Virus record (IMG/VR): IMGVR_UViG_2585427735_000020
Source: a virus
Taxonomy: Duplodnaviria > Heunggongvirae > Uroviricota > Caudoviricetes
Length of the DNA: 36,110 nucleotides
Reading direction: 5' to 3' (one strand)
Under the pieces are notes generated by a model. It made no database searches. It saw only the letters and a program-made list of their open reading frames with translations, and had not been told where the DNA came from. Shown in pieces: positions 3,906-27,385 of the stretch (within the stretch, counting starts at the first letter, position 1; each line of letters opens with the position of its first letter). The translations under genes and the position numbers were made by a program.

Positions 3906-4177
3906 GTATTCGTATTGAAATTGGCGAACGTTATGTCGTTACCAGTGACAGCTTTCAGTTTATTCTCCACGAGAAAAAGAGAGCGGAAAGCGGTAAAAAC
4001 GCCGGTCAGGAATGGCTGGCGGTGGTTGGTTATTACCCGAAATTAAGCCAGCTCGTTTCCGGCCTGATGCATCACGATATTCTGACCGGAAGCGCAAAGT
4101 CTTTTGCTGATTTAAACGCGCAGGTTGAGCAACTCAGCAAGCGTTGTTCAGAGGCTTTTGGCTCATATGACCGTTAA
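3902..4177 (+). CDS. Small early protein (P2 orf83-like), 91 aa
   Basis: Coupled ORF directly upstream of gene A. Confidence 0.5.
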   Translation: MSIRIEIGERYVVTSDSFQFILHEKKRAESGKNAGQEWLAVVGYYPKLSQLVSGLMHHDILTGSAKSFADLNAQVEQLSKRCSEAFGSYDR

Positions 4178-6269
4178 AGCCTCCGGGCATTTTGTCCCTC
4201 CGTCAGTATTTGCCGCAGGCACCGGTGAGACGTTTACCGGTGCTTATGCATGGAACGCGCCACGCGAGGCCGTCGGGCGCGAAAGACCCCTTACACGTGA
4301 CGAGATGCGTCAGGTGCAAGGTGTTTTATCCACGATTAACCGCCTGCCTTACTTTTTGCGCTCGCTGTTTACTTCACGCTATGACTACATCCGGCGCAAT
4401 AAAAGCCCGGTGCACGGGTTTTATTTCCTCACATCCACTTTTCAGCGTCGTTTATGGCCGCGCATTGAGCGTGTGAATCAGCGCCATGAAATGAACACCG
4501 ACGCGTCGTTGCTGTTTCTGGCAGAGCGTGACCACTATGCGCGCCTGCCGGGAATGAATGACAAGGAGCTGAAAAAGTTTGCCGCCCGTATCTCATCGCA
4601 GCTTTTCATGATGTATGAGGAACTCAGCGATGCCTGGGTGGATGCACATGGCGAAAAAGAATCGCTGTTTACGGATGAGGCGCAGGCTCACCTCTATGGT
4701 CATGTTGCTGGCGCTGCACGTGCTTTCAATATTTCCCCGCTTTACTGGAAAAAATACCGTAAAGGACAGATGACCACGAGGCAGGCATATTCTGCCATTG
4801 CCCGTCTGTTTAACGATGAGTGGTGGACTCATCAGCTCAAAGGCCAGCGTATGCGCTGGCATGAGGCGTTACTGATTGCTGTCGGGGAGGTGAATAAAGA
4901 CCGTTCTCCTTATGCCAGTAAACATGCCATTCGTGATGTGCGTGCACGCCGCCAGGCAAATCTGGAATTTCTTAAATCGTGTGACCTTGAAAACAGGGAA
5001 ACCGGCGAGCGCATCGACCTTATCAGTAAGGTGATGGGCAGTATTTCTAATCCTGAAATTCGCCGGATGGAGCTGATGAACACCATTGCCGGTATTGAGC
5101 GTTACGCCGCCGCAGAGGGTGATGTGGGGATGTTTATCACGCTTACCGCGCCGTCAAAGTATCACCCGACACGTCAGGTCGGAAAAGGCGAAAGTAAAAC
5201 CGTCCAGCTAAATCACGGCTGGAACGATGAGGCATTTAATCCAAAGGATGCGCAACGTTATCTCTGCCATATCTGGAGCCTGATGCGCACGGCATTCAAG
5301 GATAATGATTTACAGGTCTACGGTTTGCGTGTCGTCGAGCCACACCACGACGGAACGCCGCACTGGCATATGATGCTTTTTTGTAATCCACGCCAGCGTA
5401 ACCAGATTATCGAAATTATGCGTCGCTATGCGCTCAAAGAGGATGGCGACGAAAGAGGAGCCGCGCGAAACCGTTTTCAGGCAAAACACCTTAACCAGGG
5501 CGGTGCTGCGGGGTATATCGCGAAATACATCTCAAAAAACATCGATGGCTATGCACTGGATGGTCAGCTCGATAACGATACCGGCAGACCGCTGAAAGAC
5601 ACGGCTGCGGCTGTTACCGCATGGGCGTCAACGTGGCGCATCCCACAATTTAAAACGGTTGGTCTGCCGACAATGGGGGCTTACCGTGAACTACGAAAAT
5701 TGCCTCGCGGCGTCAGCATTGCTGATGAGTTTGACGAGCGCGTCGAGGCTGCACGCGCCGCCGCAGACAGTGGTGATTTTGCGTTGTATATCAGCGCGCA
5801 GGGTGGGGCAAATGTCCCGCGCGATTGTCAGACTGTCAGGGTCGCCCGTAGTCCGTCGGATGAAGTTAACGAGTACGAGGAAGAAGTCGAGAGAGTGGTC
5901 GGCATTTACGCGCCGCATCTCGGCGCGCGTCATATTCATATCACCAGAACGACGGACTGGCGCATTGTGCCGAAAGTTCCGGTCGTTGAGCCTTTGACTT
6001 TAAAAAGCGGCATCGCCGCGCCTCGGAGTCCTGTCAATAACTGTGGAAAGCTCACCGGTGGTGATACTTCGTTACCGGCTCCCACGCCTTCTGAGCACGC
6101 CGCAGCAGTGCTTAATCTGGTTGATGACGGTGTTATCGAATGGAATGACCCGGAGGTCGTGAGGGCGCTCAGAGGTGCACTAAAACACGGTCTAAGGACA
6201 CAAAATTATCTGCGAGACACAGCTCGCTCCCTAGATTCATGTTTACTCATGATTGGTGATTTTATATAA
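4167..6269 (+). CDS. A: Rolling-circle replication initiator gpA (HUH endonuclease)
   Basis: About 700 aa; HWHMMLF (HUH-like) and GYIAKYISK tyrosine motif; start taken as the ATG at 4167 (the track's TTG at 4125 is possible). Confidence 0.85.
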   Translation: MTVKASGHFVPPSVFAAGTGETFTGAYAWNAPREAVGRERPLTRDEMRQVQGVLSTINRLPYFLRSLFTSRYDYIRRNKSPVHGFYFLTSTFQRRLWPRIERVNQRHEMNTDASLLFLAERDHYARLPGMNDKELKKFAARISSQLFMMYEELSDAWVDAHGEKESLFTDEAQAHLYGHVAGAARAFNISPLYWKKYRKGQMTTRQAYSAIARLFNDEWWTHQLKGQRMRWHEALLIAVGEVNKDRSPYASKHAIRDVRARRQANLEFLKSCDLENRETGERIDLISKVMGSISNPEIRRMELMNTIAGIERYAAAEGDVGMFITLTAPSKYHPTRQVGKGESKTVQLNHGWNDEAFNPKDAQRYLCHIWSLMRTAFKDNDLQVYGLRVVEPHHDGTPHWHMMLFCNPRQRNQIIEIMRRYALKEDGDERGAARNRFQAKHLNQGGAAGYIAKYISKNIDGYALDGQLDNDTGRPLKDTAAAVTAWASTWRIPQFKTVGLPTMGAYRELRKLPRGVSIADEFDERVEAARAAADSGDFALYISAQGGANVPRDCQTVRVARSPSDEVNEYEEEVERVVGIYAPHLGARHIHITRTTDWRIVPKVPVVEPLTLKSGIAAPRSPVNNCGKLTGGDTSLPAPTPSEHAAAVLNLVDDGVIEWNDPEVVRALRGALKHGLRTQNYLRDTARSLDSCLLMIGDFI

Positions 6270-6451
6270 AAGCGGGGAGTGGTCTTCAAAATGCTCCTGT
6301 AGCATTACGTGTAGACTTATAATAGAAATTATATACAAATCAATAAGTTATTTTTGTTTTGTATTATGTGTTGATGCTTTGGTTTCATAATGTAAAAATT
6401 ATCAGAAATTCTCTGCTTGTAGTTTCGTCATATAACGAAAGGGATTGCTTA

Positions 6452-9400
6452 ATGTTTAATTCTTATACTGAATTTGTAAAGTCTTTGGTATTGGATATTC
6501 GGAAAGGTAAAGACGTTAGTTTTCTTCTGGGGTCAGCCGTGAGTTGCTCGCCGGAGGGGAATGGGGTACCGGGCGTTTCAGGGATGAATGATATTCTGCG
6601 GCAATATATGATTGATTTAGATATTTATGATGGCTTTGAAAGTAACATAATCGGTTTAAGTGAAACTGATAAATATCAAAAAAGTTTCGAATACCTTTTG
6701 AAGGTAGGTGATCAAGATGAAGTTAAAGAAATAATGGCTCTTGCAATGAATAATGCAAGGAGCGGCGACAAATGGTTAATTACTAAATCACTTGATGATT
6801 TTTCAAGGCTTATTTCAGAAACTAGCATTAAAGTAAAATGCATACTTACAACAAATTTTGATCCATTGATTGAAGAGGCATTGTTTAGAGTAAATAGAAA
6901 TTGTAATGTACATAATCTTATTGTAGATCAACCAATTGGTAGCGTTACCAGCTATTCAGGCGAATCCATTCCCGTAGTGCATTTACATGGAGTTTGGGAT
7001 GGAGATACTATGCATACTCAAACTCAGCTTTCTTCATTGAGGAAAAAAATTGAGTTGTCAATAAAAAATATATTGGATACAAGTAAATTATATGTTATTG
7101 GATATGCAGGTTGGGATGATGTTTTTCTACAGGCGTTAAGAAACATCGTCCATGAGTTTCAGCCAAGTTATAATGTTAGATGGGGTTTTTATAAAAACTC
7201 AATTGATGATGTGAGTAAAGAACATTCACGATTGATTGAAATTATTCAACCAGCGCTTGTTAATGCTCGTTTTCAAGGATATGTTGGGGTTGACTGTAAT
7301 ACATACTTTGAAGATGCTTTGGCTGAGATTAGTAAAAAAAAACAATTAAGTAAGTTTGTTGTAAAAAAAACTGGATTACAGCCGATAACAGAAAGCATAG
7401 TTATTTCGCTGAGACCCTATAACCTTTCAGTTGAGCCTGCGCATGATATAATTAGATTAGTAGAGCAAAAAAAAGCCACTGATTATTTAAATAATAACAA
7501 TCATTTTGAGCTTGTTTCTGGTTGGGGATACGGAAAAGCAGGTTTTTTATATTCTTTTATTCATGATGAATTTTATGATTTCACATGTTATTATAGTGAT
7601 GTCAATGGATTGACTGAATCTCGTGATATTGAAGTTAAAATAAAACAGGATATCGGTATCGATATTGCAACCTTCATATCTAATAATGGATTAGGAAAGC
7701 GGATTTTAATTCTTGATAACATAGCCAGACTTCCTCCATCAACTAAAGCTTTCTTTTCTGAGATTGCGAAATTATCATCAGATCTTAGTTCTGGTGTGAA
7801 AGTTATTTTTGTATCAGCGACATGTAACGGGATATGCTCTGGTATAGTGGAATTACAGCCTTTATCTTTAGATGATATAAAGGAGTATATTAAAGTTGGC
7901 ACTGATATTACTGAAATAAAAAGAGAGAAACTTGATAGGTTGTATGAAATAACAAATGGAATACCTTTAAAATTAGATAAGGTTAAAGAGTATTATGAGT
8001 TAATGTCATTTGATGAAGTCCTTGATGCAGGGAATATTGTTGTTTCGGCAGAGGGAACAAATACGGACATTCCACACTACATATCCAAGCAAATAAACGA
8101 GATTAGAAGTGATAATAGAAAACTATATTCATTACTATGCATTTTCTCTATGCTTGAATATGGGGAGAAATTGACAAATATTCGCTCTTATTATTCATCG
8201 TATGATTTTCATTTTGATGATTTCGCAAAACTAGAAAGATATGGTCTGATTTATACAATTACAAAGGATAATTATAAAATATTAAGGATATCACCAGTTG
8301 TTAGTGATTTTGTAAAGCAGGGTATGGATCCTAACCAACGGTATGAACTTGTAAAAAAATCCCTAGGACTTTGTATCGGTAGCGATTGGATGTCAGGGAA
8401 AGTGAGAGTCTCTCCTACAGTGAAGATGATGCTTGAAAGCACGGAGTTTTATCCTGGAAATGTCCATTCAGCTATTAGTTCATACTTTTCATTAATAGAT
8501 ATTAATAATTATGATCGAGAAGTCAAATCATTAATACATGTTTCTATAGGATATTGCATCTTTTTAAAGAGTGCATGTTACTATAAAGAACTCGTCGCAT
8601 TTTCTCGGATGCTTTATTCTAATATTTCTCATTTGGATATTCTTGATAAATTTAGGGCTGCGTATTTTTTGGCTACAAGTTTAAGAATGATTGATGAGGT
8701 TGAACAAAGTGTTGAATTTATTGAGCCTTTAAGTGATGAGTTCGAGGCAAAAGAGTTTTGTCAAAAGGAATATTATTTTAAAATGCTTGATAATATTATG
8801 ATGGCATGCTCTGAATATAATGATGAAAAAGCACGAAAATACGCAATAAAATTAAAAAAGATAGCTCCAAAGTCTTCTAGTTATTATATCAATGCTGAAG
8901 TTCATTTGGCTGACGAATTGTCTCATGGTAAAAGGGTTAATAAGCTTATTTCTCTCGAGAAAAAGTCCCGAGCTGCTGGGTATAACACGCTGGCTAATAA
9001 TATTAGCATTAAACTTCATTATTTGTTTTCTGGTTCATCTTTCAAATATATTGATAATGCCATAAAAAATGAAGGGGGAGTGTATACTAAGGCCAGGGCG
9101 TTACTTGTTAAGTATGAAGAGTTGGTACGTTGCGGAGAGTTTGAAAAAATTGATGCGGAGGGGGTGAGGGAATTAAAGGCCGTTTATGATTATTTGTTCT
9201 TGCAGCGATTAGATGAGCTTTTTAACAGATGTACCGATGTGTTATGGCAGCTTATGAAAGCGTATCGGGATGTTAATGGCTTATACTACTTATTTAAGCG
9301 TGGTTCTGTAATTTGGCGTGTAACCTCATCTTATGATAAAGAGTTAGAATATGCTAAGGAGTTGAATGAGCAACAGTTTGATATCAGTGGAGGAGGTGAT

Positions 9401-9487
9401 GATATGAAATATTTATCAATCAGACTGAGTTTTTTGGCACTAAAGGTGGAGCGAGATAAGTGTCTGATTGATGCTCCAACATTGTAA
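6452..9487 (+). CDS. Cargo protein, 1011 aa: N-terminal SIR2-like domain + STAND-like NTPase core + C-terminal helical repeats (SIR2-STAND/Avs5-like or DSR-like candidate defence protein)
   Basis: ATG 6452 with GAAAGGGA SD; SIR2 motifs FLLGSAVS...GVPG, TTNFD (6848..6862), HLHG (6980..6991), IGYAGWDD; then GWGYGKAG (7520..7543), ILILDN (about 7700..7720), GIPLKL (7958..7975); AT-rich, replaces tin/old between A and cos. Confidence 0.6.
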   Translation: MFNSYTEFVKSLVLDIRKGKDVSFLLGSAVSCSPEGNGVPGVSGMNDILRQYMIDLDIYDGFESNIIGLSETDKYQKSFEYLLKVGDQDEVKEIMALAMNNARSGDKWLITKSLDDFSRLISETSIKVKCILTTNFDPLIEEALFRVNRNCNVHNLIVDQPIGSVTSYSGESIPVVHLHGVWDGDTMHTQTQLSSLRKKIELSIKNILDTSKLYVIGYAGWDDVFLQALRNIVHEFQPSYNVRWGFYKNSIDDVSKEHSRLIEIIQPALVNARFQGYVGVDCNTYFEDALAEISKKKQLSKFVVKKTGLQPITESIVISLRPYNLSVEPAHDIIRLVEQKKATDYLNNNNHFELVSGWGYGKAGFLYSFIHDEFYDFTCYYSDVNGLTESRDIEVKIKQDIGIDIATFISNNGLGKRILILDNIARLPPSTKAFFSEIAKLSSDLSSGVKVIFVSATCNGICSGIVELQPLSLDDIKEYIKVGTDITEIKREKLDRLYEITNGIPLKLDKVKEYYELMSFDEVLDAGNIVVSAEGTNTDIPHYISKQINEIRSDNRKLYSLLCIFSMLEYGEKLTNIRSYYSSYDFHFDDFAKLERYGLIYTITKDNYKILRISPVVSDFVKQGMDPNQRYELVKKSLGLCIGSDWMSGKVRVSPTVKMMLESTEFYPGNVHSAISSYFSLIDINNYDREVKSLIHVSIGYCIFLKSACYYKELVAFSRMLYSNISHLDILDKFRAAYFLATSLRMIDEVEQSVEFIEPLSDEFEAKEFCQKEYYFKMLDNIMMACSEYNDEKARKYAIKLKKIAPKSSSYYINAEVHLADELSHGKRVNKLISLEKKSRAAGYNTLANNISIKLHYLFSGSSFKYIDNAIKNEGGVYTKARALLVKYEELVRCGEFEKIDAEGVRELKAVYDYLFLQRLDELFNRCTDVLWQLMKAYRDVNGLYYLFKRGSVIWRVTSSYDKELEYAKELNEQQFDISGGGDDMKYLSIRLSFLALKVERDKCLIDAPTL

Positions 9488-20034: not shown

Positions 20035-20943
20035 ATGCCGATTATCGACCTGAACCAGCTACCTGCACCGGATGTGGTCGAGGAGCTGGACTTTGAAACC
20101 ATTCTTGCCGAACGCAAGGCGACACTGATTTCCCTTTACCCGGAAGACCAGCAGGAGGCGGTCGCCCGTACCCTGACGCTGGAATCCGAGCCTCTCGTCA
20201 AACTGCTGGAGGAAAATGCGTATCGTGAGCTTCTCTGGCGTCAGCGTGTGAATGAGGCCGCACGGGCGGTGATGCTGGCCTGTGCCGCGGGTAATGACCT
20301 TGATGTGATTGGTGCCAATTACAACACCACGCGTCTGACTATCACCCCGGCAGATGATTCGACCATCCCGCCGACACCGGCAGTGATGGAATCTGACACC
20401 GATTATCGTCTGCGTATTCAGCAGGCGTTTGAAGGTTTAAGCGTCGCCGGGTCGGTGGGTGCCTATCAGTATCATGGCCGCAGTGCCGACGGGCGTGTCG
20501 CGGATATCTCTGTCACCAGTCCGTCTCCGGCCTGCGTCACTATCTCTGTGCTGTCACGTGAAAATAACGGCGTCGCATCCGAAGACCTGCTGGCTGTGGT
20601 GCGTAACGCCCTTAATGGCGAGGACGTCAGGCCGGTGGCCGACCGCGTGACCGTGCAGTCTGCCGCCATCGTTGAATACCAGATAAACGCCACGCTTTAC
20701 CTTTACCCTGGTCCCGAAAGCGAACCCATCCGCGCTGCTGCCGTGAAAAAGCTGGAAGCGTATATCACGGCACAGCACCGGCTGGGGCGCGACATCCGTC
20801 TGTCTGCCATTTATGCCGCTTTGCATGTGGAAGGTGTGCAGCGTGTCGAACTGGCTGCACCACTGGCCGACATCGTGCTCAACAGTACGCAGGCGTCTTT
20901 CTGTACCGAATACCGCGTCGTGACCGGAGGCTCGGATGAGTGA
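20035..20943 (+). CDS. J: Baseplate protein gpJ, 302 aa
   Basis: 302 aa; P2 order. Confidence 0.85.
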   Translation: MPIIDLNQLPAPDVVEELDFETILAERKATLISLYPEDQQEAVARTLTLESEPLVKLLEENAYRELLWRQRVNEAARAVMLACAAGNDLDVIGANYNTTRLTITPADDSTIPPTPAVMESDTDYRLRIQQAFEGLSVAGSVGAYQYHGRSADGRVADISVTSPSPACVTISVLSRENNGVASEDLLAVVRNALNGEDVRPVADRVTVQSAAIVEYQINATLYLYPGPESEPIRAAAVKKLEAYITAQHRLGRDIRLSAIYAALHVEGVQRVELAAPLADIVLNSTQASFCTEYRVVTGGSDE

Positions 20944-21465
20944 TTCGCGACTGCTGCCGACCGGCTCATCACCGCTGAGGTCGCCGCCGCAAAAGCCTGT
21001 GCGGAAATTGAAAAAACGCCGGTCAGTATTCGTGAGCAGTGGAACCCGGACACCTGTCCGGCAAATCTGCTGCCGTGGCTGGCGTGGGCGTTTTCGGTCG
21101 ACAGGTGGGATGAAAAGTGGCCGGAAGCGACAAAACGCGCCGTTATCCGCGATGCGTATTTCATCCACTGTCATAAAGGCACAATAGGTGCAATCCGGCG
21201 TGTGGTGGAGCCGCTCGGCTATCTCATCAACGTGACGGAGTGGTGGGAAAACAGTGACCCGCCCGGCACCTTCCGGCTTGATATTGGTGTACTGGAAAGC
21301 GGCATCACAGAGGCAATGTATCAGGAAATGGAACGGCTGATTGCTGATGCCAAACCTGCAAGCCGCCACCTTATTGGCCTGAACATTACCCGGGACATTC
21401 CCGGCTACCTGTTCGCCGGTGGTGTGGCTTACGACGGCGATGTAATTACGGTTTACCCCGGATAA
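20936..21465 (+). pseudogene. I: Baseplate gene I with apparent -1 frameshift near the 5' end
   Basis: ATG 20936 overlaps the J stop, but the native-looking product (...EVAAAKACAEIEKTPVSIREQWNPDTCPANLLPWLAWAFSVDRWDE...VITVYPG) is in the -1 frame from about 20977 to stop 21465; the ATG frame gives an Arg-rich junk ORF; total span equals the P2 gpI length. Confidence 0.6.
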
Positions 21466-21475
21466 GTGAGGAATA

Positions 21476-23794
21476 ATGAGCACAAAATTCAGAACCGTTA
21501 TCACCACTGCCGGTGCAGCAAAGCTGGCAGCGGCAACCGCACCGGGAGGGCGGAAGGTCAACATTACCACGATGGCCGTCGGGGATGGCGGTGGTAAATT
21601 GCCTGTCCCGGATGCCGGACAGACCGGGCTTATCCACGAAGTCTGGCGACATGCGCTGAACAAAATCAGCCAGGACAAACGAAACAGTAATTATATTATC
21701 GCAGAGCTGGTTATTCCGCCGGAGGTGGGCGGTTTCTGGATGCGTGAGCTTGGCCTGTACGATGATGCGGGAACGTTAATTGCTGTGGCGAACATGGCCG
21801 AAAGTTATAAGCCAGCTCTTGCCGAAGGCTCAGGGCGTTCGCAGACCTGCCGTATGGTCATCATCGTCAGCAGTGTGACCTCAGTGGCGCTGACCATTGA
21901 CACCACAACGGTGATGGCGACGCAGGATTACGTTGATGACAAAATTGCAGAGCATGAACAGTCACGACGTCACCCGGACGCCTCGCTGACCGCAAAAGGT
22001 TTTACTCAGTTAAGCAATGCGACCAACAGCACGTCTGAAACACTGGCCGCAACGCCGAAAGCGGTAAAGGCCGCGTATGATCTTGCTAACGGGAAATACA
22101 CTGCGCAGGATGCCACCACAGCGCGAAAAGGTCTTGTCCAGCTCAGTAGCGCCACCAACAGCACGTCTGAAACGCTCGCCGCAACACCAAAAGCGGTAAA
22201 GGCAGCATATGACCTTGCTAACGGGAAATACACTGCACAGGACGCCACCACAGCGCGAAAAGGTCTTGTCCAGCTCAGTAGCGCCACCAACAGCGATTCT
22301 GAAACGCTTGCGGCAACGCCAAAGGCGGTTAAGACAGCGTATGACCTTGCTAACGGGAAATACACTGCACAGGACGCCACCACGGCGCGGAAAGGTCTTG
22401 TCCAGCTCAGTAGCGCCACCAACAGTGATTCTGAAACGCTGGCCGCAACATCAAAAGCGGTGAAGTCTGCCTATGACAATGCTGAAAAACGTCTTCAGAA
22501 AGATCAGAACGGTGCGGATATTCCGGGAAAGGATACCTTCACGAAAAATATCGGTGCCTGTCGTGCTTATAGCGGCGCTTTGAGCACTGAAGCCGGAAAC
22601 TGGACAACCGCTCAGTTTATTGAATGGCTGGATTCCCGTGGTGCATTTAATCATCCGTACTGGATGTGCAAAGGCTCATGGTCATATGCAAATAACAAAA
22701 TCATTACGGATACCGGATGTGGTGATATCCACCTGGATGGTTGTGTCGTCGAGGTCATGGGAACTAAATCTGCAATCACTATCCGAGTGACCACGCCGAC
22801 AACATCAAGTGGTGGCGGTACAACCAGCGCGCAATTCACTTACATTAATCATGGGGACGGCTACTCCCCCGGCTGGCGTCGTGACTGGAATCGTCAGGGC
22901 GACTCAATGACCGGAACGATTAATCAGGATGGCGGAAGCCAGAATGCCTATATGTCTACGGCCTTATGTTCAGGCACCAGAGGCGGCAAAAAATATCTCA
23001 GAAAGTTTCGTGGTGGAGAAGGAGACACTATCTGGCATGAAACAGTACAGGGCGGGGTAGTTCGCTGGGCGACTGGTAATACTGATGCTCAGGAAGAATT
23101 ATCACTCAGCTCCGCTTATGGTCTCCGTTCAAGAGGTGAGATTACATCACTCAGTGCTAATGGTCTGCGCATTGCTTATGGCAATTATGGTTTCTTTATC
23201 AGGAATGATGGCAGCAGCACTTATTTTATGTTGACTAAATCAGGTGACAGATTAGGCAGTTATAATAATTTAAGACCGCTGATTATAAATGATGCCACGG
23301 GTGCTGTATCAATGGGGCATGGCCTGAATGTTACTGGTGATATTGTCTCAAGTACCAAAGTACGTGCCGGTAGCGGGAAAAAATTCACGGTCAGCAGCAG
23401 TAATACATCCACGAAGGAAGCCGCATTCAATTTGTGGGGAAACTCAAGTCGTCCGGTGGTGGCTGAATTAGGTGATGATGCAGGCTGGCATTTTTACAGT
23501 CAGAGAAATACAGATAACAGCATCACTTTTGCTGTTAACGGGCAGGTATCACCATCTAACTATGGCAACTTTGATTCACGCTATGTCCGGGATATCCGGC
23601 TTGGTGGTGCTGCCACATACAAACCTGCGAACAATGGCATGACATGGACACATCAGGCACCGTCCGGGTGTGTATATTCCGGCATTATTGTTCAGGATAC
23701 CGGCTCAAACTCTGCCGATAACATTGGTGGCATATATTACAGACCGGTGCAGAAATACATTAACGGGACATGGTATAACGTGGCGCAGGTATAA
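21476..23794 (+). CDS. H: Tail fibre protein gpH, 772 aa, with internal tandem repeats
   Basis: Conserved N-terminal tail-fibre region, then 132-nt repeats, then a lower-GC C-terminal receptor-binding region. Confidence 0.85.
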   Translation: MSTKFRTVITTAGAAKLAAATAPGGRKVNITTMAVGDGGGKLPVPDAGQTGLIHEVWRHALNKISQDKRNSNYIIAELVIPPEVGGFWMRELGLYDDAGTLIAVANMAESYKPALAEGSGRSQTCRMVIIVSSVTSVALTIDTTTVMATQDYVDDKIAEHEQSRRHPDASLTAKGFTQLSNATNSTSETLAATPKAVKAAYDLANGKYTAQDATTARKGLVQLSSATNSTSETLAATPKAVKAAYDLANGKYTAQDATTARKGLVQLSSATNSDSETLAATPKAVKTAYDLANGKYTAQDATTARKGLVQLSSATNSDSETLAATSKAVKSAYDNAEKRLQKDQNGADIPGKDTFTKNIGACRAYSGALSTEAGNWTTAQFIEWLDSRGAFNHPYWMCKGSWSYANNKIITDTGCGDIHLDGCVVEVMGTKSAITIRVTTPTTSSGGGTTSAQFTYINHGDGYSPGWRRDWNRQGDSMTGTINQDGGSQNAYMSTALCSGTRGGKKYLRKFRGGEGDTIWHETVQGGVVRWATGNTDAQEELSLSSAYGLRSRGEITSLSANGLRIAYGNYGFFIRNDGSSTYFMLTKSGDRLGSYNNLRPLIINDATGAVSMGHGLNVTGDIVSSTKVRAGSGKKFTVSSSNTSTKEAAFNLWGNSSRPVVAELGDDAGWHFYSQRNTDNSITFAVNGQVSPSNYGNFDSRYVRDIRLGGAATYKPANNGMTWTHQAPSGCVYSGIIVQDTGSNSADNIGGIYYRPVQKYINGTWYNVAQV
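21995..22500 (+). repeat. In-frame tandem repeat inside H: 132-nt (44-aa) unit, about 3.7 copies
   Basis: Units start at 21995, 22127, 22259, 22391; unit is KGLVQLSSATNS(T/D)SETLAATPKAVKAAYDLANGKYTAQDATTAR. Confidence 0.85.
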
Positions 23795-23797
23795 TTT

Positions 23798-24325
23798 ATG
23801 CAGCATTTGATAAATATAACGGTGGGTAATCCAAAAACGGTTGAACAATATCAATTGACAAAGGACTTTGATGTTGTCTGGTTTTTTTCAGAAGATGGTA
23901 AGAACTGGTACGAAGAACAAAAGTATTTTGCTGATGACACGATAAAAATAGCGTACGACAAAGATAATATTATCCGCTATGTGGAAAAGGATGTGACAGC
24001 TATCAGACCAGATGGATTAAGTGTGGTTGAAGTGGCGGATATTACTGCTAACCGACGGGCGGACATTTCAGGGAACTGGATGTTTAAGGACGGCAAAGTG
24101 ATTAAACGCATTTATACGGCAGAGGAATTGCAGCAGCAGGCAGAAAACCGGAAAGCCAGACTTCTTGCAGATGCTGAATCCGTGATTTTGCCACTGGAGC
24201 GCGCTGTCAGGCTGAACATGGCAACAGATGAGGAGCGTAGCCGACTGGAAGCATGGGAACGCTACAGTGTTCTGGTCAGCCGTGTGGATCCTGCAAATCC
24301 TGAATGGCCGGAAATGCCGCAATAA
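23798..24325 (+). CDS. G: Tail fibre assembly chaperone gpG, 175 aa
   Basis: 175 aa immediately after H. Confidence 0.8.
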
Positions 24326-24800: not shown

Positions 24801-25736
24801 GTGGTTACATATAATTCAATGTTGTTACCCCCCCCTAAATCTTGGGACGAATTTGAGGATATGTGCAAAAGTTCATTCCAACTGCGATGGTCCAATCCTA
24901 ATCTGAACAGACATGGACGGTCAGGGCAGCGGCAGGATGGAGTTGATGTATATGGTGATGACTCTCTTGGGCGTTTCGTTGGAATTCAGTGTAAAAATAC
25001 AGTATCAGGAATCAGTACGGCGACAATCGATGATGAATTACTCAAGGCTGAAAAATTTCGCCCAAAAATTACGGTTCTTTACATCGCTACGACAGCGCCC
25101 AGGGATGTTAGCATTCAGCGCTATGTAAGAACACTCAATGATGCCAGACAATTAAAAGGCCTGTTTCCTGTCGATGTGGTTTTCTGGGAGGATATTAGCT
25201 TTGATTTAAGCAAAGACCCAGCTGTACTCAAAATGTACTACCCGCAAATGTTCGAACGACACCAACCGACGAGGGAAGAATTTTTGCGCAAGAGAGATAT
25301 CTCAAATTTGTCGACATTGTTGAATGTTATTGATTTTCATTCAACAATAGACCATTTGCAGTGGGGCGCAAAATACATTCATTCATTAATTATTGAAGAA
25401 TACGATAATATTTTGAACATTTTAAACTCACCTGTTTTTCAACTGAATGATACAGCTTTAAAGAATGTTACAATTGATTTTGCAACGGCCTGGCGTGATC
25501 TAATTATCTTGTTTAGAAAAGCTCCATATAATTATTCAGCACCAAATGATACTTTTAGTTTTATAAATCCCGGTGACCACTGTCGAAATCAGGAGGAAAG
25601 CGATTTATACGACGAAATCACGCATAGCATGAGTAATCTCAAAGATAAAATTAGTACTTTTTGTGACTTTATAAATAATCACTACCATGAAATAAACTTA
25701 ACCGAAACGAGCGCGCAAGCCAGGAAATATTATTAA
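24801..25736 (+). CDS. Cargo protein, 311 aa: Mrr-type PD-(D/E)xK restriction-endonuclease-like N-terminal domain + uncharacterised C-terminal domain
   Basis: GTG start 7 nt after AAAGGA; FEDM...RHGRSGQRQDGVDVYGDD...GRFVGIQCKNT (nt about 24912..24998) resembles the Mrr catalytic core (D...D...QxK); AT-rich, between G and FI. Confidence 0.55.
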   Translation: MVTYNSMLLPPPKSWDEFEDMCKSSFQLRWSNPNLNRHGRSGQRQDGVDVYGDDSLGRFVGIQCKNTVSGISTATIDDELLKAEKFRPKITVLYIATTAPRDVSIQRYVRTLNDARQLKGLFPVDVVFWEDISFDLSKDPAVLKMYYPQMFERHQPTREEFLRKRDISNLSTLLNVIDFHSTIDHLQWGAKYIHSLIIEEYDNILNILNSPVFQLNDTALKNVTIDFATAWRDLIILFRKAPYNYSAPNDTFSFINPGDHCRNQEESDLYDEITHSMSNLKDKISTFCDFINNHYHEINLTETSAQARKYY

Positions 25737-26518: not shown

Positions 26519-27385
26519 ATGGTCCGTTTTAACTTACTAGAAAATGCGTTGGATTCAGTGGAAACCGGGCTGGACTACTTTAACAAAGCGCTAGAAGGGC
26601 ATGATCGACGTGACTACAAACAGTGCCTGCTTAACCTCTTTCAGGCCGCTGAGCTATTGTTGAAGGCCGTAGTTTCGCGCAATGGGTCTGGAGCGATTTT
26701 TAATCCAGCATCGCTTCAAGAAAAATGTGTGGATCCGGCGCATCCAACCGAGTCAGAATTACACCAGTGTAAATCTGTCAACGTCAACCAGCTTTGTAAG
26801 CTGTTAAAGACATATTACCCAGCCGAATTTTCTGAATCTGCATTACAAATGATGAAAACGGTGGGTCAGTTGCGTAATAACCTTCAGCATTTTGCCCTTG
26901 AGGTTCGTCCGCAAGAACTGGCAATGCAACTGAGTGAACTGTACCAACAAATTTTTCGTCCCGCATTCGTCATAATTCAGTCAGATGAGACCGAAAATTC
27001 ATGGAACTCTGATTTACGTCAAGACATCATCGCTCTTGAGCAACAATTCCTTGATATAACTGTTAACCAGGAATACACCCTTGCACTTTGTCCCGTTTGT
27101 GAGAGTTTTTCACATTTTATCCTTTACCAAGGTGAAAGCTTTCCGGCACGGACTCACTGTATCTGTTGTGGTTTCAGCCTGAATAATCTGCAAACTTGGG
27201 ATTTTCAGGAATGTCCTGAATGTAGTGTCCCATCCGTAATTTATTTACCGGAACAAAGGGTCGGTGTCTGTCTCTGGTATAAATGTGAATACAGCAAGAT
27301 GGATGGTTTTGTTCCTATGGAGCCTTGTGAATGTGGTGCATTCCGGATGGAAGGTCATTGCAGTAACTGCGATCTTGAGGAATAG
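26519..27385 (+). CDS. Cargo protein, 288 aa: HEPN-like helical N-terminal domain (Rx4H) + C-terminal multi zinc-ribbon domain
   Basis: ATG 26519 after a G-rich SD; LRNNLQH at 26873..26890; CPVC, CICC, CPEC, Cx4C, CEC, CSNC pairs across 27089..27370. Confidence 0.55.
   Translation: MVRFNLLENALDSVETGLDYFNKALEGHDRRDYKQCLLNLFQAAELLLKAVVSRNGSGAIFNPASLQEKCVDPAHPTESELHQCKSVNVNQLCKLLKTYYPAEFSESALQMMKTVGQLRNNLQHFALEVRPQELAMQLSELYQQIFRPAFVIIQSDETENSWNSDLRQDIIALEQQFLDITVNQEYTLALCPVCESFSHFILYQGESFPARTHCICCGFSLNNLQTWDFQECPECSVPSVIYLPEQRVGVCLWYKCEYSKMDGFVPMEPCECGAFRMEGHCSNCDLEE

Follow-up and report, generated by a model that had tools for sequence, protein, structure and literature searches.

A four-unit Phage_fiber_2 array in the tail fibre gene H of a P2-like Escherichia coli prophage, shared with close relatives and variable in copy number

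The virus record IMGVR_UViG_2585427735_000020 from IMG/VR, a stretch of 36,110 nucleotides (nt) that we refer to as the window, is evidently a P2-like (Peduovirus) prophage of Escherichia coli adjoining the host gene yegQ, and its tail fibre gene H contains a run of repeats of 44 amino acids (aa) each. A first-pass annotation, made from the letters of the window alone, described this run as an expansion of a tandem repeat that lengthens the fibre shaft, creates a recombination-prone tract, and gives rise to a spurious antisense open reading frame (ORF). We followed up these claims by comparing the array with the H genes of related phages and prophages. We find that the array is very probably made of the known phage fibre repeat PF03406 (Phage_fiber_2), a feature that is already known and ordinary in fibres of this kind, and that the same four units are found in close relatives of the prophage.

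The repeat itself was recovered by two independent approaches. Tandem Repeats Finder reported a single tract with a period of 132 nt, 3.5 copies, 90% matches, no indels, and a score of 709, and a separate repeat search returned three 226-nt copies starting at positions 21994, 22126, and 22258 (a spacing of 132 nt) that were 83 to 87% identical to the first. The period corresponds to 3 × 44, the frame of H runs through the array without a stop, and three 132-nt copies at about 90% identity cannot be the product of chance. When the units are cut in the register of the first-pass annotation (SETLAAT...), copies 1 to 3 share 87.1 to 92.4% DNA identity, and the fourth, at 45 to 48% identity, has only its first ~17 residues in common with them. 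The original description of three near-identical, in-frame copies followed by a diverging fourth is thus accurate in that register. In the register of the Pfam profile, the same tract consists of four contiguous, full 44-aa units arranged head to tail (aa 170 to 345; 21983..22510). PF03406 matches H in four stretches with 253.1 bits (E = 7.5e-77; the gathering cut-off for the whole protein is 22 bits), and the best of these stretches covers positions 1 to 41 of the 42-position profile. The array starts ~20 residues past the N-terminal anchor domain and ends where the variable, chaperone-dependent distal part of the protein begins. Directly before it lies a conserved linker, ...HEQSRRHPDA (to ~residue 170). 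Every P2-type H that we examined has the array in this place, immediately behind the linker, and varies only in how many units it contains.

The assignment of the four units to a tail fibre gene H is borne out by the domains of the protein (PF12571 followed by four stretches of PF03406), by the I-H-G gene order, and by a Caudo_TAP chaperone gene on the 3' side. The prophage spans from an integrase near the left end to ogr/D, followed by yegQ, and the order of its late operon, V-W-J-I-H-G, matches that of phage P2 and of the annotated prophage of E. coli 120899. The H gene is 99.4% identical in nucleotides to the gene annotated as "tail fiber protein" in E. coli 120899, and residues 1 to 251 of its product are 95% identical to those of P2 gpH. 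The anchor domain is 98 to 100% identical across 80 IMG/VR loci, and the counterpart of gene G in the related genome of E. coli 120899 is annotated as a tail fiber assembly protein. By homology, H would be a trimeric baseplate fibre that contacts the host receptor, with the anchor domain holding the trimer.

Comparison with characterised relatives showed both what is shared and what varies. P2 gpH (NC_001895, P2p20, 669 aa) has the same anchor, linker, and repeat family as the window, an array that likewise begins at residue 170, and the same I-H-G order with a gpG chaperone. Unlike the window, however, P2 has two units (two PF03406 stretches) instead of four, and both the junction after its last unit (...AVKTVMDETNKK) and its distal part differ from those of the window. 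The Yersinia phages vB_YpM_115, vB_YpM_117, and vB_YpM_46, together with E. coli 120899, carry four units, each with 93 to 100% DNA identity to its counterpart in the window (97 to 100% for units 1 to 3), and they also carry the junction and most of the distal part of the window allele (95.6 to 99.4% nt identity). The window differs from the Yersinia phages by point differences and over the last ~190 nt, and from E. coli 120899 by point differences only. For practical purposes, the H genes of the Yersinia phages, of E. coli 120899, and of the window can be regarded as the same allele class. L-413C (one unit), P37 (three units, annotated as "tail fiber repeat protein"), and alleles with five or six units share the anchor, the repeat, and the register of the window; what sets them apart is how many units they carry and which distal module follows.

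These alignments also bear on the age of the array. Units that occupy the same position in different phages share 97 to 100% DNA identity, whereas units within the window array share 73 to 92%. Unit 1 of the window is 94% identical to unit 1 of P2 but only 75 to 79% identical to units 2 and 3 of its own array, which are in turn 92.4% identical to each other. Unit 2 is 98% identical to unit 2 of both P37 and vB_YpM_115, and unit 3 matches its counterparts in vB_YpM_115 and E. coli 120899 at 98 to 100% identity, while the best unit of P37 reaches at most 91% identity to unit 3. The three-unit allele of P37 has counterparts of units 1, 2, and 4 only. Given that matches by position exceed matches within the array, the duplication that produced unit 3 predates the divergence of these phages. 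The four-unit state is evidently an inherited, common allele, neither a recent local event nor a product of the assembler.

It could be argued that the four-copy array is an assembly artefact, in which the assembler expanded or collapsed the repeat. Short-read assemblies do break at the array: many H homologues in the databases are "partial" proteins, and 5 of the 80 IMG/VR contigs terminate within gene H, one of them within unit 4. However, the same position-specific substitutions are present in a complete E. coli genome, in isolated Yersinia phages, and in 13 IMG/VR contigs, and the units of the window differ from each other by 8 to 25% in DNA, making them distinguishable and not the identical copies that are prone to miscounting. 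The complete genome of E. coli 120899 contains the full-length, four-unit H in one piece, and vB_YpM_115 matches the H gene of the window, again in one piece, at 97.9% identity over nt 1 to 2129. All 13 of the IMG/VR contigs have a 772-aa H with a four-unit array, two of them differing from the window by only 2 nt within the array. The alignment with H genes of relatives that the first-pass annotation had proposed as a check thus recovers the array from independent assemblies, and we consider an assembly artefact to be highly improbable.

We next counted units across a wider set of relatives. Since BLAST output on repeats is hard to turn into unit numbers, we anchored the censuses of loci on the N-terminal domain. 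Characterised phages range from one unit (L-413C) through two (P2) and three (P37) to four (vB_YpM_115), the last number being shared by the prophage of E. coli 120899. A search by the anchor domain alone in one genome per bacterial species (Escherichia, Citrobacter, Enterobacter, Salmonella, Buttiauxella, Scandinavium, and others) gave 5 loci with one unit, 11 with two, 7 with three, and 2 with four. The closest relatives, 80 IMG/VR loci with an anchor domain at least 98% identical to that of the window, include 75 complete H genes, and here two units were found in 9 genes, three in 2, four in 51, and five in 13. Protein clusters from E. coli reach five and six units, and the number of units behind the same anchor domain ranges from 1 to 6. 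The window allele thus belongs to the commonest class of its lineage, well within the known range of copy numbers. The term "expansion" is apt relative to P2, with its two units, with the caveats that four units are the commonest state among the closest relatives and that the extra unit is old.

Beyond this anchor domain, a profile of the four units of the window, searched against 1.84 billion representative proteins, gave 4743 matches at E ≤ 0.001, among which were fibres with 11 and 12 near-identical units in higher-order repeats. Three representative proteins (P0121, P0122, and P0123) have other N-termini and 7 to 12 units, and their higher-order repeat consists of 44-aa units in alternation with 57-aa units, the latter bearing an inserted ...AAGKAPSSHTHPWNQITGVPTA segment. 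In the literature that we searched, we found no paper describing how the copy number of this repeat varies among P2-like phages.

An obvious consequence of unit number is protein length. Total H length climbs with the number of units (rho = 0.38), and we did not find that a shorter distal part compensates for additional units (rho = -0.18, P = 0.14). The first-pass claim that the array lengthens the fibre shaft is plausible in this light, but remains an inference. In the trimer, each 44-residue unit would form one small fibrous module composed, in order, of a beta-strand led by a glycine, a loop, and a helix on the three-fold axis capped by Thr-Pro, as in T4 gp34 and gp12. Four such units would make up a proximal shaft that sets the distance from baseplate to tip and that would have a longer reach than the two units of P2.

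The comparison with T4 stems from a shared pattern of residues. In T4 gp34 and gp12, a conserved glycine opens the outward strand and a Ser/Thr-Pro caps the helix of an axial three-helix bundle (PMC5537660). In the P2-type unit, positions 5 and 6 are an invariant K-G, followed by LVQLS, and positions 24 and 25 hold an (A)T-P within AAT-P-KAVK. An hhalign comparison placed KG-LVQLS / AATPKAVK of the unit on RG-IARIA / IITPKKLN of gp34 with P = 0.0018, yet with a probability of 15%. The T4 repeats are 33 to 47 residues long, have variable loops, and, unlike the P2-type units, are not near-identical to each other. T4 gp34 and the window H do have in common a Gp34_trimer domain further downstream. 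Given this hhalign probability and a HMMER comparison that returned nothing significant, homology to the gp34 repeats is not established, and we kept T4 as an analogy only.

Structural data offered limited guidance on the fold. An AlphaFold2 monomer model of aa 1 to 400, built from 22 aligned homologues, had a mean predicted local distance difference test (pLDDT) score of 45.7, with all values in the repeat region below 50, and we did not use it; such low scores are to be expected when an intertwined trimer is modelled as a monomer. A profile of 24 diverse units matched only the Mu S chains 5yvq, 9ki1, and 8ju3 in the PDB. In the cryo-electron microscopy paper on Mu, gp49 was built at its N-terminus only, and the crystal structure is that of the C-terminus.

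Several points have to be set against our reading of the array and its role in the shaft. The repeat is covered by no experimental or confidently predicted structure, and the unit may be unresolved in the sole PDB chains that contain it, those of Mu S. A HMMER profile comparison between the T4 gp34 repeats and the P2-type units gave nothing significant, and Pfam does not link the two. Unit number is linked by no experiment to fibre length, adsorption, or host range, and a change in copy number was not observed in the source of the window itself. In addition, the prophage may build no functional fibres, as its gene I is frameshifted (see below).

A different role for the units would be that they bind the host surface themselves, such that extra copies alter host range through avidity. 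Apart from the general fact that fibre repeats form part of the particle surface, we found nothing that speaks for this idea. Across Escherichia, Yersinia, Enterobacter, and Buttiauxella, H is most conserved in its units, and it is the distal part that varies. Moreover, a pyocin fibre that carries only P2 H residues 291 to 669, which lie past the repeats, is retargeted to the P2 host and kills it (PMC6116203), a result that also favours a spacer role for the repeats. Residues 291 to 669 are thus sufficient for targeting, meaning that the repeats are not the specificity determinant, and we regard an effect of unit number through avidity as very improbable.

That the tract is recombination-prone, as the first-pass annotation proposed, is supported by comparison with relatives and not by anything seen within the window. 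In addition to the range of 1 to 6 units, three separate distal types are each found with either four or five units. In one near-isogenic pair, L036 (five units) and L066 (four units), the flanks differ at 12 of 1722 positions (99.3% identity), and units 3 and 4 of L036, which differ from each other by 1 nt, both correspond to unit 3 of L066. The extra unit of L036 is, on this comparison, a fresh duplication of one unit. Within the window array, stretches of 51, 44, and 35 nt recur without a mismatch 132 nt further along, and these are adequate substrates for recombination. We also compared twelve distinct alleles of the 772-aa H with the window and found that synonymous diversity (pS) was 0.166 in the array and 0.049 and 0.081 in the flanks, a 2- to 3.4-fold excess, while the ratio of nonsynonymous to synonymous diversity (pN/pS) was 0.057 in the array, the lowest value in H, and 0.113 and 0.224 in the flanks. 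This pattern fits unit exchange or gene conversion under strong constraint on the protein, although it is no proof of either. On these comparisons, units are gained and lost in whole steps of 132 nt, via unequal homologous recombination or slippage between adjacent units.

This variation raises the question of whether the number of units matters to the phage. One possibility is that unit number is a fast-evolving length ruler, by which the reach of the fibre would be matched to the thickness of the O-antigen or capsule. If so, the synonymous excess would be the trace of ongoing gene conversion, through which the units stay similar enough to recombine. The data behind this idea consist of the variation and one fresh duplication, with no link to host surface or fitness, and we consider it unlikely. 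Alternatively, unit number may be without adaptive meaning, a tolerated by-product of frequent unequal recombination, with 1 to ~6 units being equally workable; every unit would still have to fold, but the length would be untuned. The 1 to 6 units behind one anchor domain follow no visible pattern, an identical distal type can be joined to either four or five units, additional units bring no shortening of the distal part, and characterised phages with one, two, three, or four units are all viable. Against this, four units dominate among the closest relatives (51 of 75), although shared ancestry could account for that, and purifying selection within the gene is strongest on the units, an observation that speaks for the units and not for their number. 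We hold the absence of adaptive meaning to be possible, though less likely than not.

What follows the array is more variable than the array itself. The distal part of the window H is a mosaic made up of a segment like Mu S' (aa 333 to 487), a Gp34_trimer domain (PF21446, aa 540 to 604), and a C-terminal segment like that of Mu S and P2 H (aa 546 to 772). The first of these matches the Mu G(-) fibre S' (PDB 8ju3) with E = 1.9e-90 and 236 bits, aa 546 to 771 match the Mu G(+) fibre S (5yvq) with E = 1.2e-63 and 156 bits, and the last ~150 residues of H are 57% identical to the C-terminus of P2 H. Distal parts of at least nine different lengths follow four-unit arrays, and the conserved last unit and its junction serve, judging by these comparisons, as a crossover point for joining different distal modules. 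Mu S (5yvq, 9ki1, and 8ju3) has one Phage_fiber_2 unit, at residues 113 to 156, which aligns with unit 4 of the window and is followed by a junction common to both proteins (...DNAxxRLxKDxNGADIP.K). Mu differs from the window in having this single unit, another N-terminus, and a distal part that is switched by means of an invertible G segment.

The array is also found outside P2-like prophages, in a tail fibre of 48-kb phage-plasmids. One of these, a plasmid of E. coli ATCC 25922 (NZ_CP009073), a 48-kb non-mobilizable phage-plasmid with contractile-tail genes, encodes an 802-aa tail fibre (locus L114, 3431..5839) with a different N-terminus, a P2-type distal part, and a four-unit array with 83% DNA identity to that of the window. 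Downstream of this fibre gene lie two tail fibre assembly genes in opposite orientations, together with a recombinase gene, an arrangement which suggests that the fibre segment may be invertible. Tail fibre genes have long been described as mosaics that are traded among unrelated phages, L-413C H being one such case (PMC7460101), and the reuse of the array, the variety of distal parts, and the junction shared with Mu S all agree with this view. The PF03406 or "Pf2" domain was first identified in lambda Stf and also occurs in lambdoid side tail fibres and in the collagen-like fibres of enterohaemorrhagic E. coli (EHEC) prophages, and little is known of its structure or function (PMC3368898). 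The lambda Stf and EHEC fibres are unlike the window H in their N-terminal domain (PF08400) and their context. We ruled out StfR of E. coli K-12 as a long Phage_fiber_2 array, as it had neither a PF03406 match nor a tandem repeat.

The coordinates of gene H, its parts, and the associated reading frames are collected in Table 1.

Table 1. Features of the tail fibre region, in window coordinates
Feature	Position	Strand	Remarks
Tail fibre gene H	21476..23794	+	772 aa; PF12571, PF03406 x4, PF21446
N-terminal tail-collar / baseplate-anchor domain, aa 1-151	21476..21928	+	PF12571 Phage_tail_fib, E 3.5e-58
Tandem array, DNA level	22022..22477	+	Tandem Repeats Finder
Repeat unit 1, aa 170-213	21983..22114	+	N-terminal edge diverged
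Repeat unit 2, aa 214-257	22115..22246	+	Pfam register
Repeat unit 3, aa 258-301	22247..22378	+	No positional counterpart in the 3-unit P37 allele
Repeat unit 4, aa 302-345	22379..22510	+	Second half is the conserved junction ...AVKSAYDNAEKRLQKDQN, common to Mu S
Distal receptor-binding part, aa 346-772	22511..23791	+	PDB sequence matches, PF21446
Gene G, tail fibre assembly chaperone	23798..24325	+	PF02413 Caudo_TAP, E 6.8e-35
Antisense ORF, 138 aa, TTG start	22006..22422	-	Stop-free antisense frame repeated 3.2 times
Off-frame ORF, 84 aa, repeat-derived	22209..22463	+	Same spurious nature

The first-pass annotation had dismissed the antisense ORF as an artefact of the repeats, and our results agree. 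The ORF begins with TTG, contains no ATG, and has no Shine-Dalgarno-like sequence upstream; it has no Pfam match above the cut-off (DUF2127 scored 17.1 bits against the 24.3 required), and RefSeq leaves it unannotated in the near-identical genome of E. coli 120899. Were it instead a real overlapping gene, it would encode a repetitive hydrophobic protein, and three observations could be cited for it: the frame is open for 155 codons, there is the sub-threshold match to DUF2127, and its pN/pS of 0.061 is as low as that of the sense frame. The last of these would be expected anyway, as every third codon position in one frame is also a third position in the other, and for this reason we discarded the ratio of nonsynonymous to synonymous substitution (dN/dS) as a test (0.061, compared to 0.057 for the H frame, and thus uninformative) and used conservation of stop codons instead. 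Stop codons interrupt the antisense frame in 23 of the 25 arrays compared across species. Of 245 distinct units, 92 lack a stop in this frame, compared to 85 expected from synonymous resampling, so its openness is at the level of chance. In addition, the length of the ORF equals the unit number times 44 codons. We consider it extremely improbable that the antisense ORF is a gene.

A separate observation concerns the exact reverse-complement frame of the H codons (22012..22453, minus strand), which is stop-free in 153 of the 245 distinct units, compared to 53 expected from synonymous resampling. This frame contains no ORF of 60 aa or more in the window. The deficit of stops is likely due to the shared ancestry of the units together with avoidance of TTA, CTA, and TCA codons.

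Directly 5' of H, gene I (tail/baseplate protein I; 20936..21465) is frameshifted. One T of CCGCTTGAGG, the form found in P2 and E. coli 120899, is deleted between positions 20975 and 20976, leaving ORFs of 83 aa (20936..21187) and 87 aa (21202..21465) in place of a single 176-aa ORF. The remaining late genes have the lengths expected. The 1-nt deletion is either an inactivating mutation, in which case the prophage would be defective, or a single-base sequencing error. If it is real, a normal baseplate would be impossible for this prophage.

Two further regions of the window coincide with positions at which P2 carries cargo genes. At the old/tin position, between gene A (4125..6269) and the portal gene, lies a 1042-aa ORF (6359..9487, plus strand) with a SIR2_2 domain at aa 161 to 269 (Pfam E = 2.6e-7) and matches to SIR2-type defence models of PADLOC (E = 1e-15 to 7e-9). 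In the closest genome, this position is taken by a different gene, an AAA ATPase on the opposite strand. At the Z/fun position, between G and the sheath gene, there are two plus-strand ORFs, both listed as "hypothetical protein" in RefSeq. The first (24801..25736, 311 aa) has no Pfam or PADLOC match, and the N-terminal 140 aa of the second (26519..27385, 288 aa) match the PADLOC candidate system PDC-S64 (E = 3.7e-21), with a weak match to HEC-08 as well. Both cargo hotspots thus hold candidate defence genes.

The weight of the finding lies in little beyond correct annotation; public phage and E. coli genomes already contain the four-unit allele. In practice, ORFs that derive from the repeat, whether off-frame or antisense, should stay unannotated, and the 132-nt repeat should be recognised as one that breaks or truncates short-read assemblies and leaves H entries "partial". 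For the fibres of this family, the natural range of the array, from 1 to 6 units with this anchor and up to 12 in other fibres, suggests that its length could be adjusted in either direction in the design of chimeric P2 or pyocin fibres.

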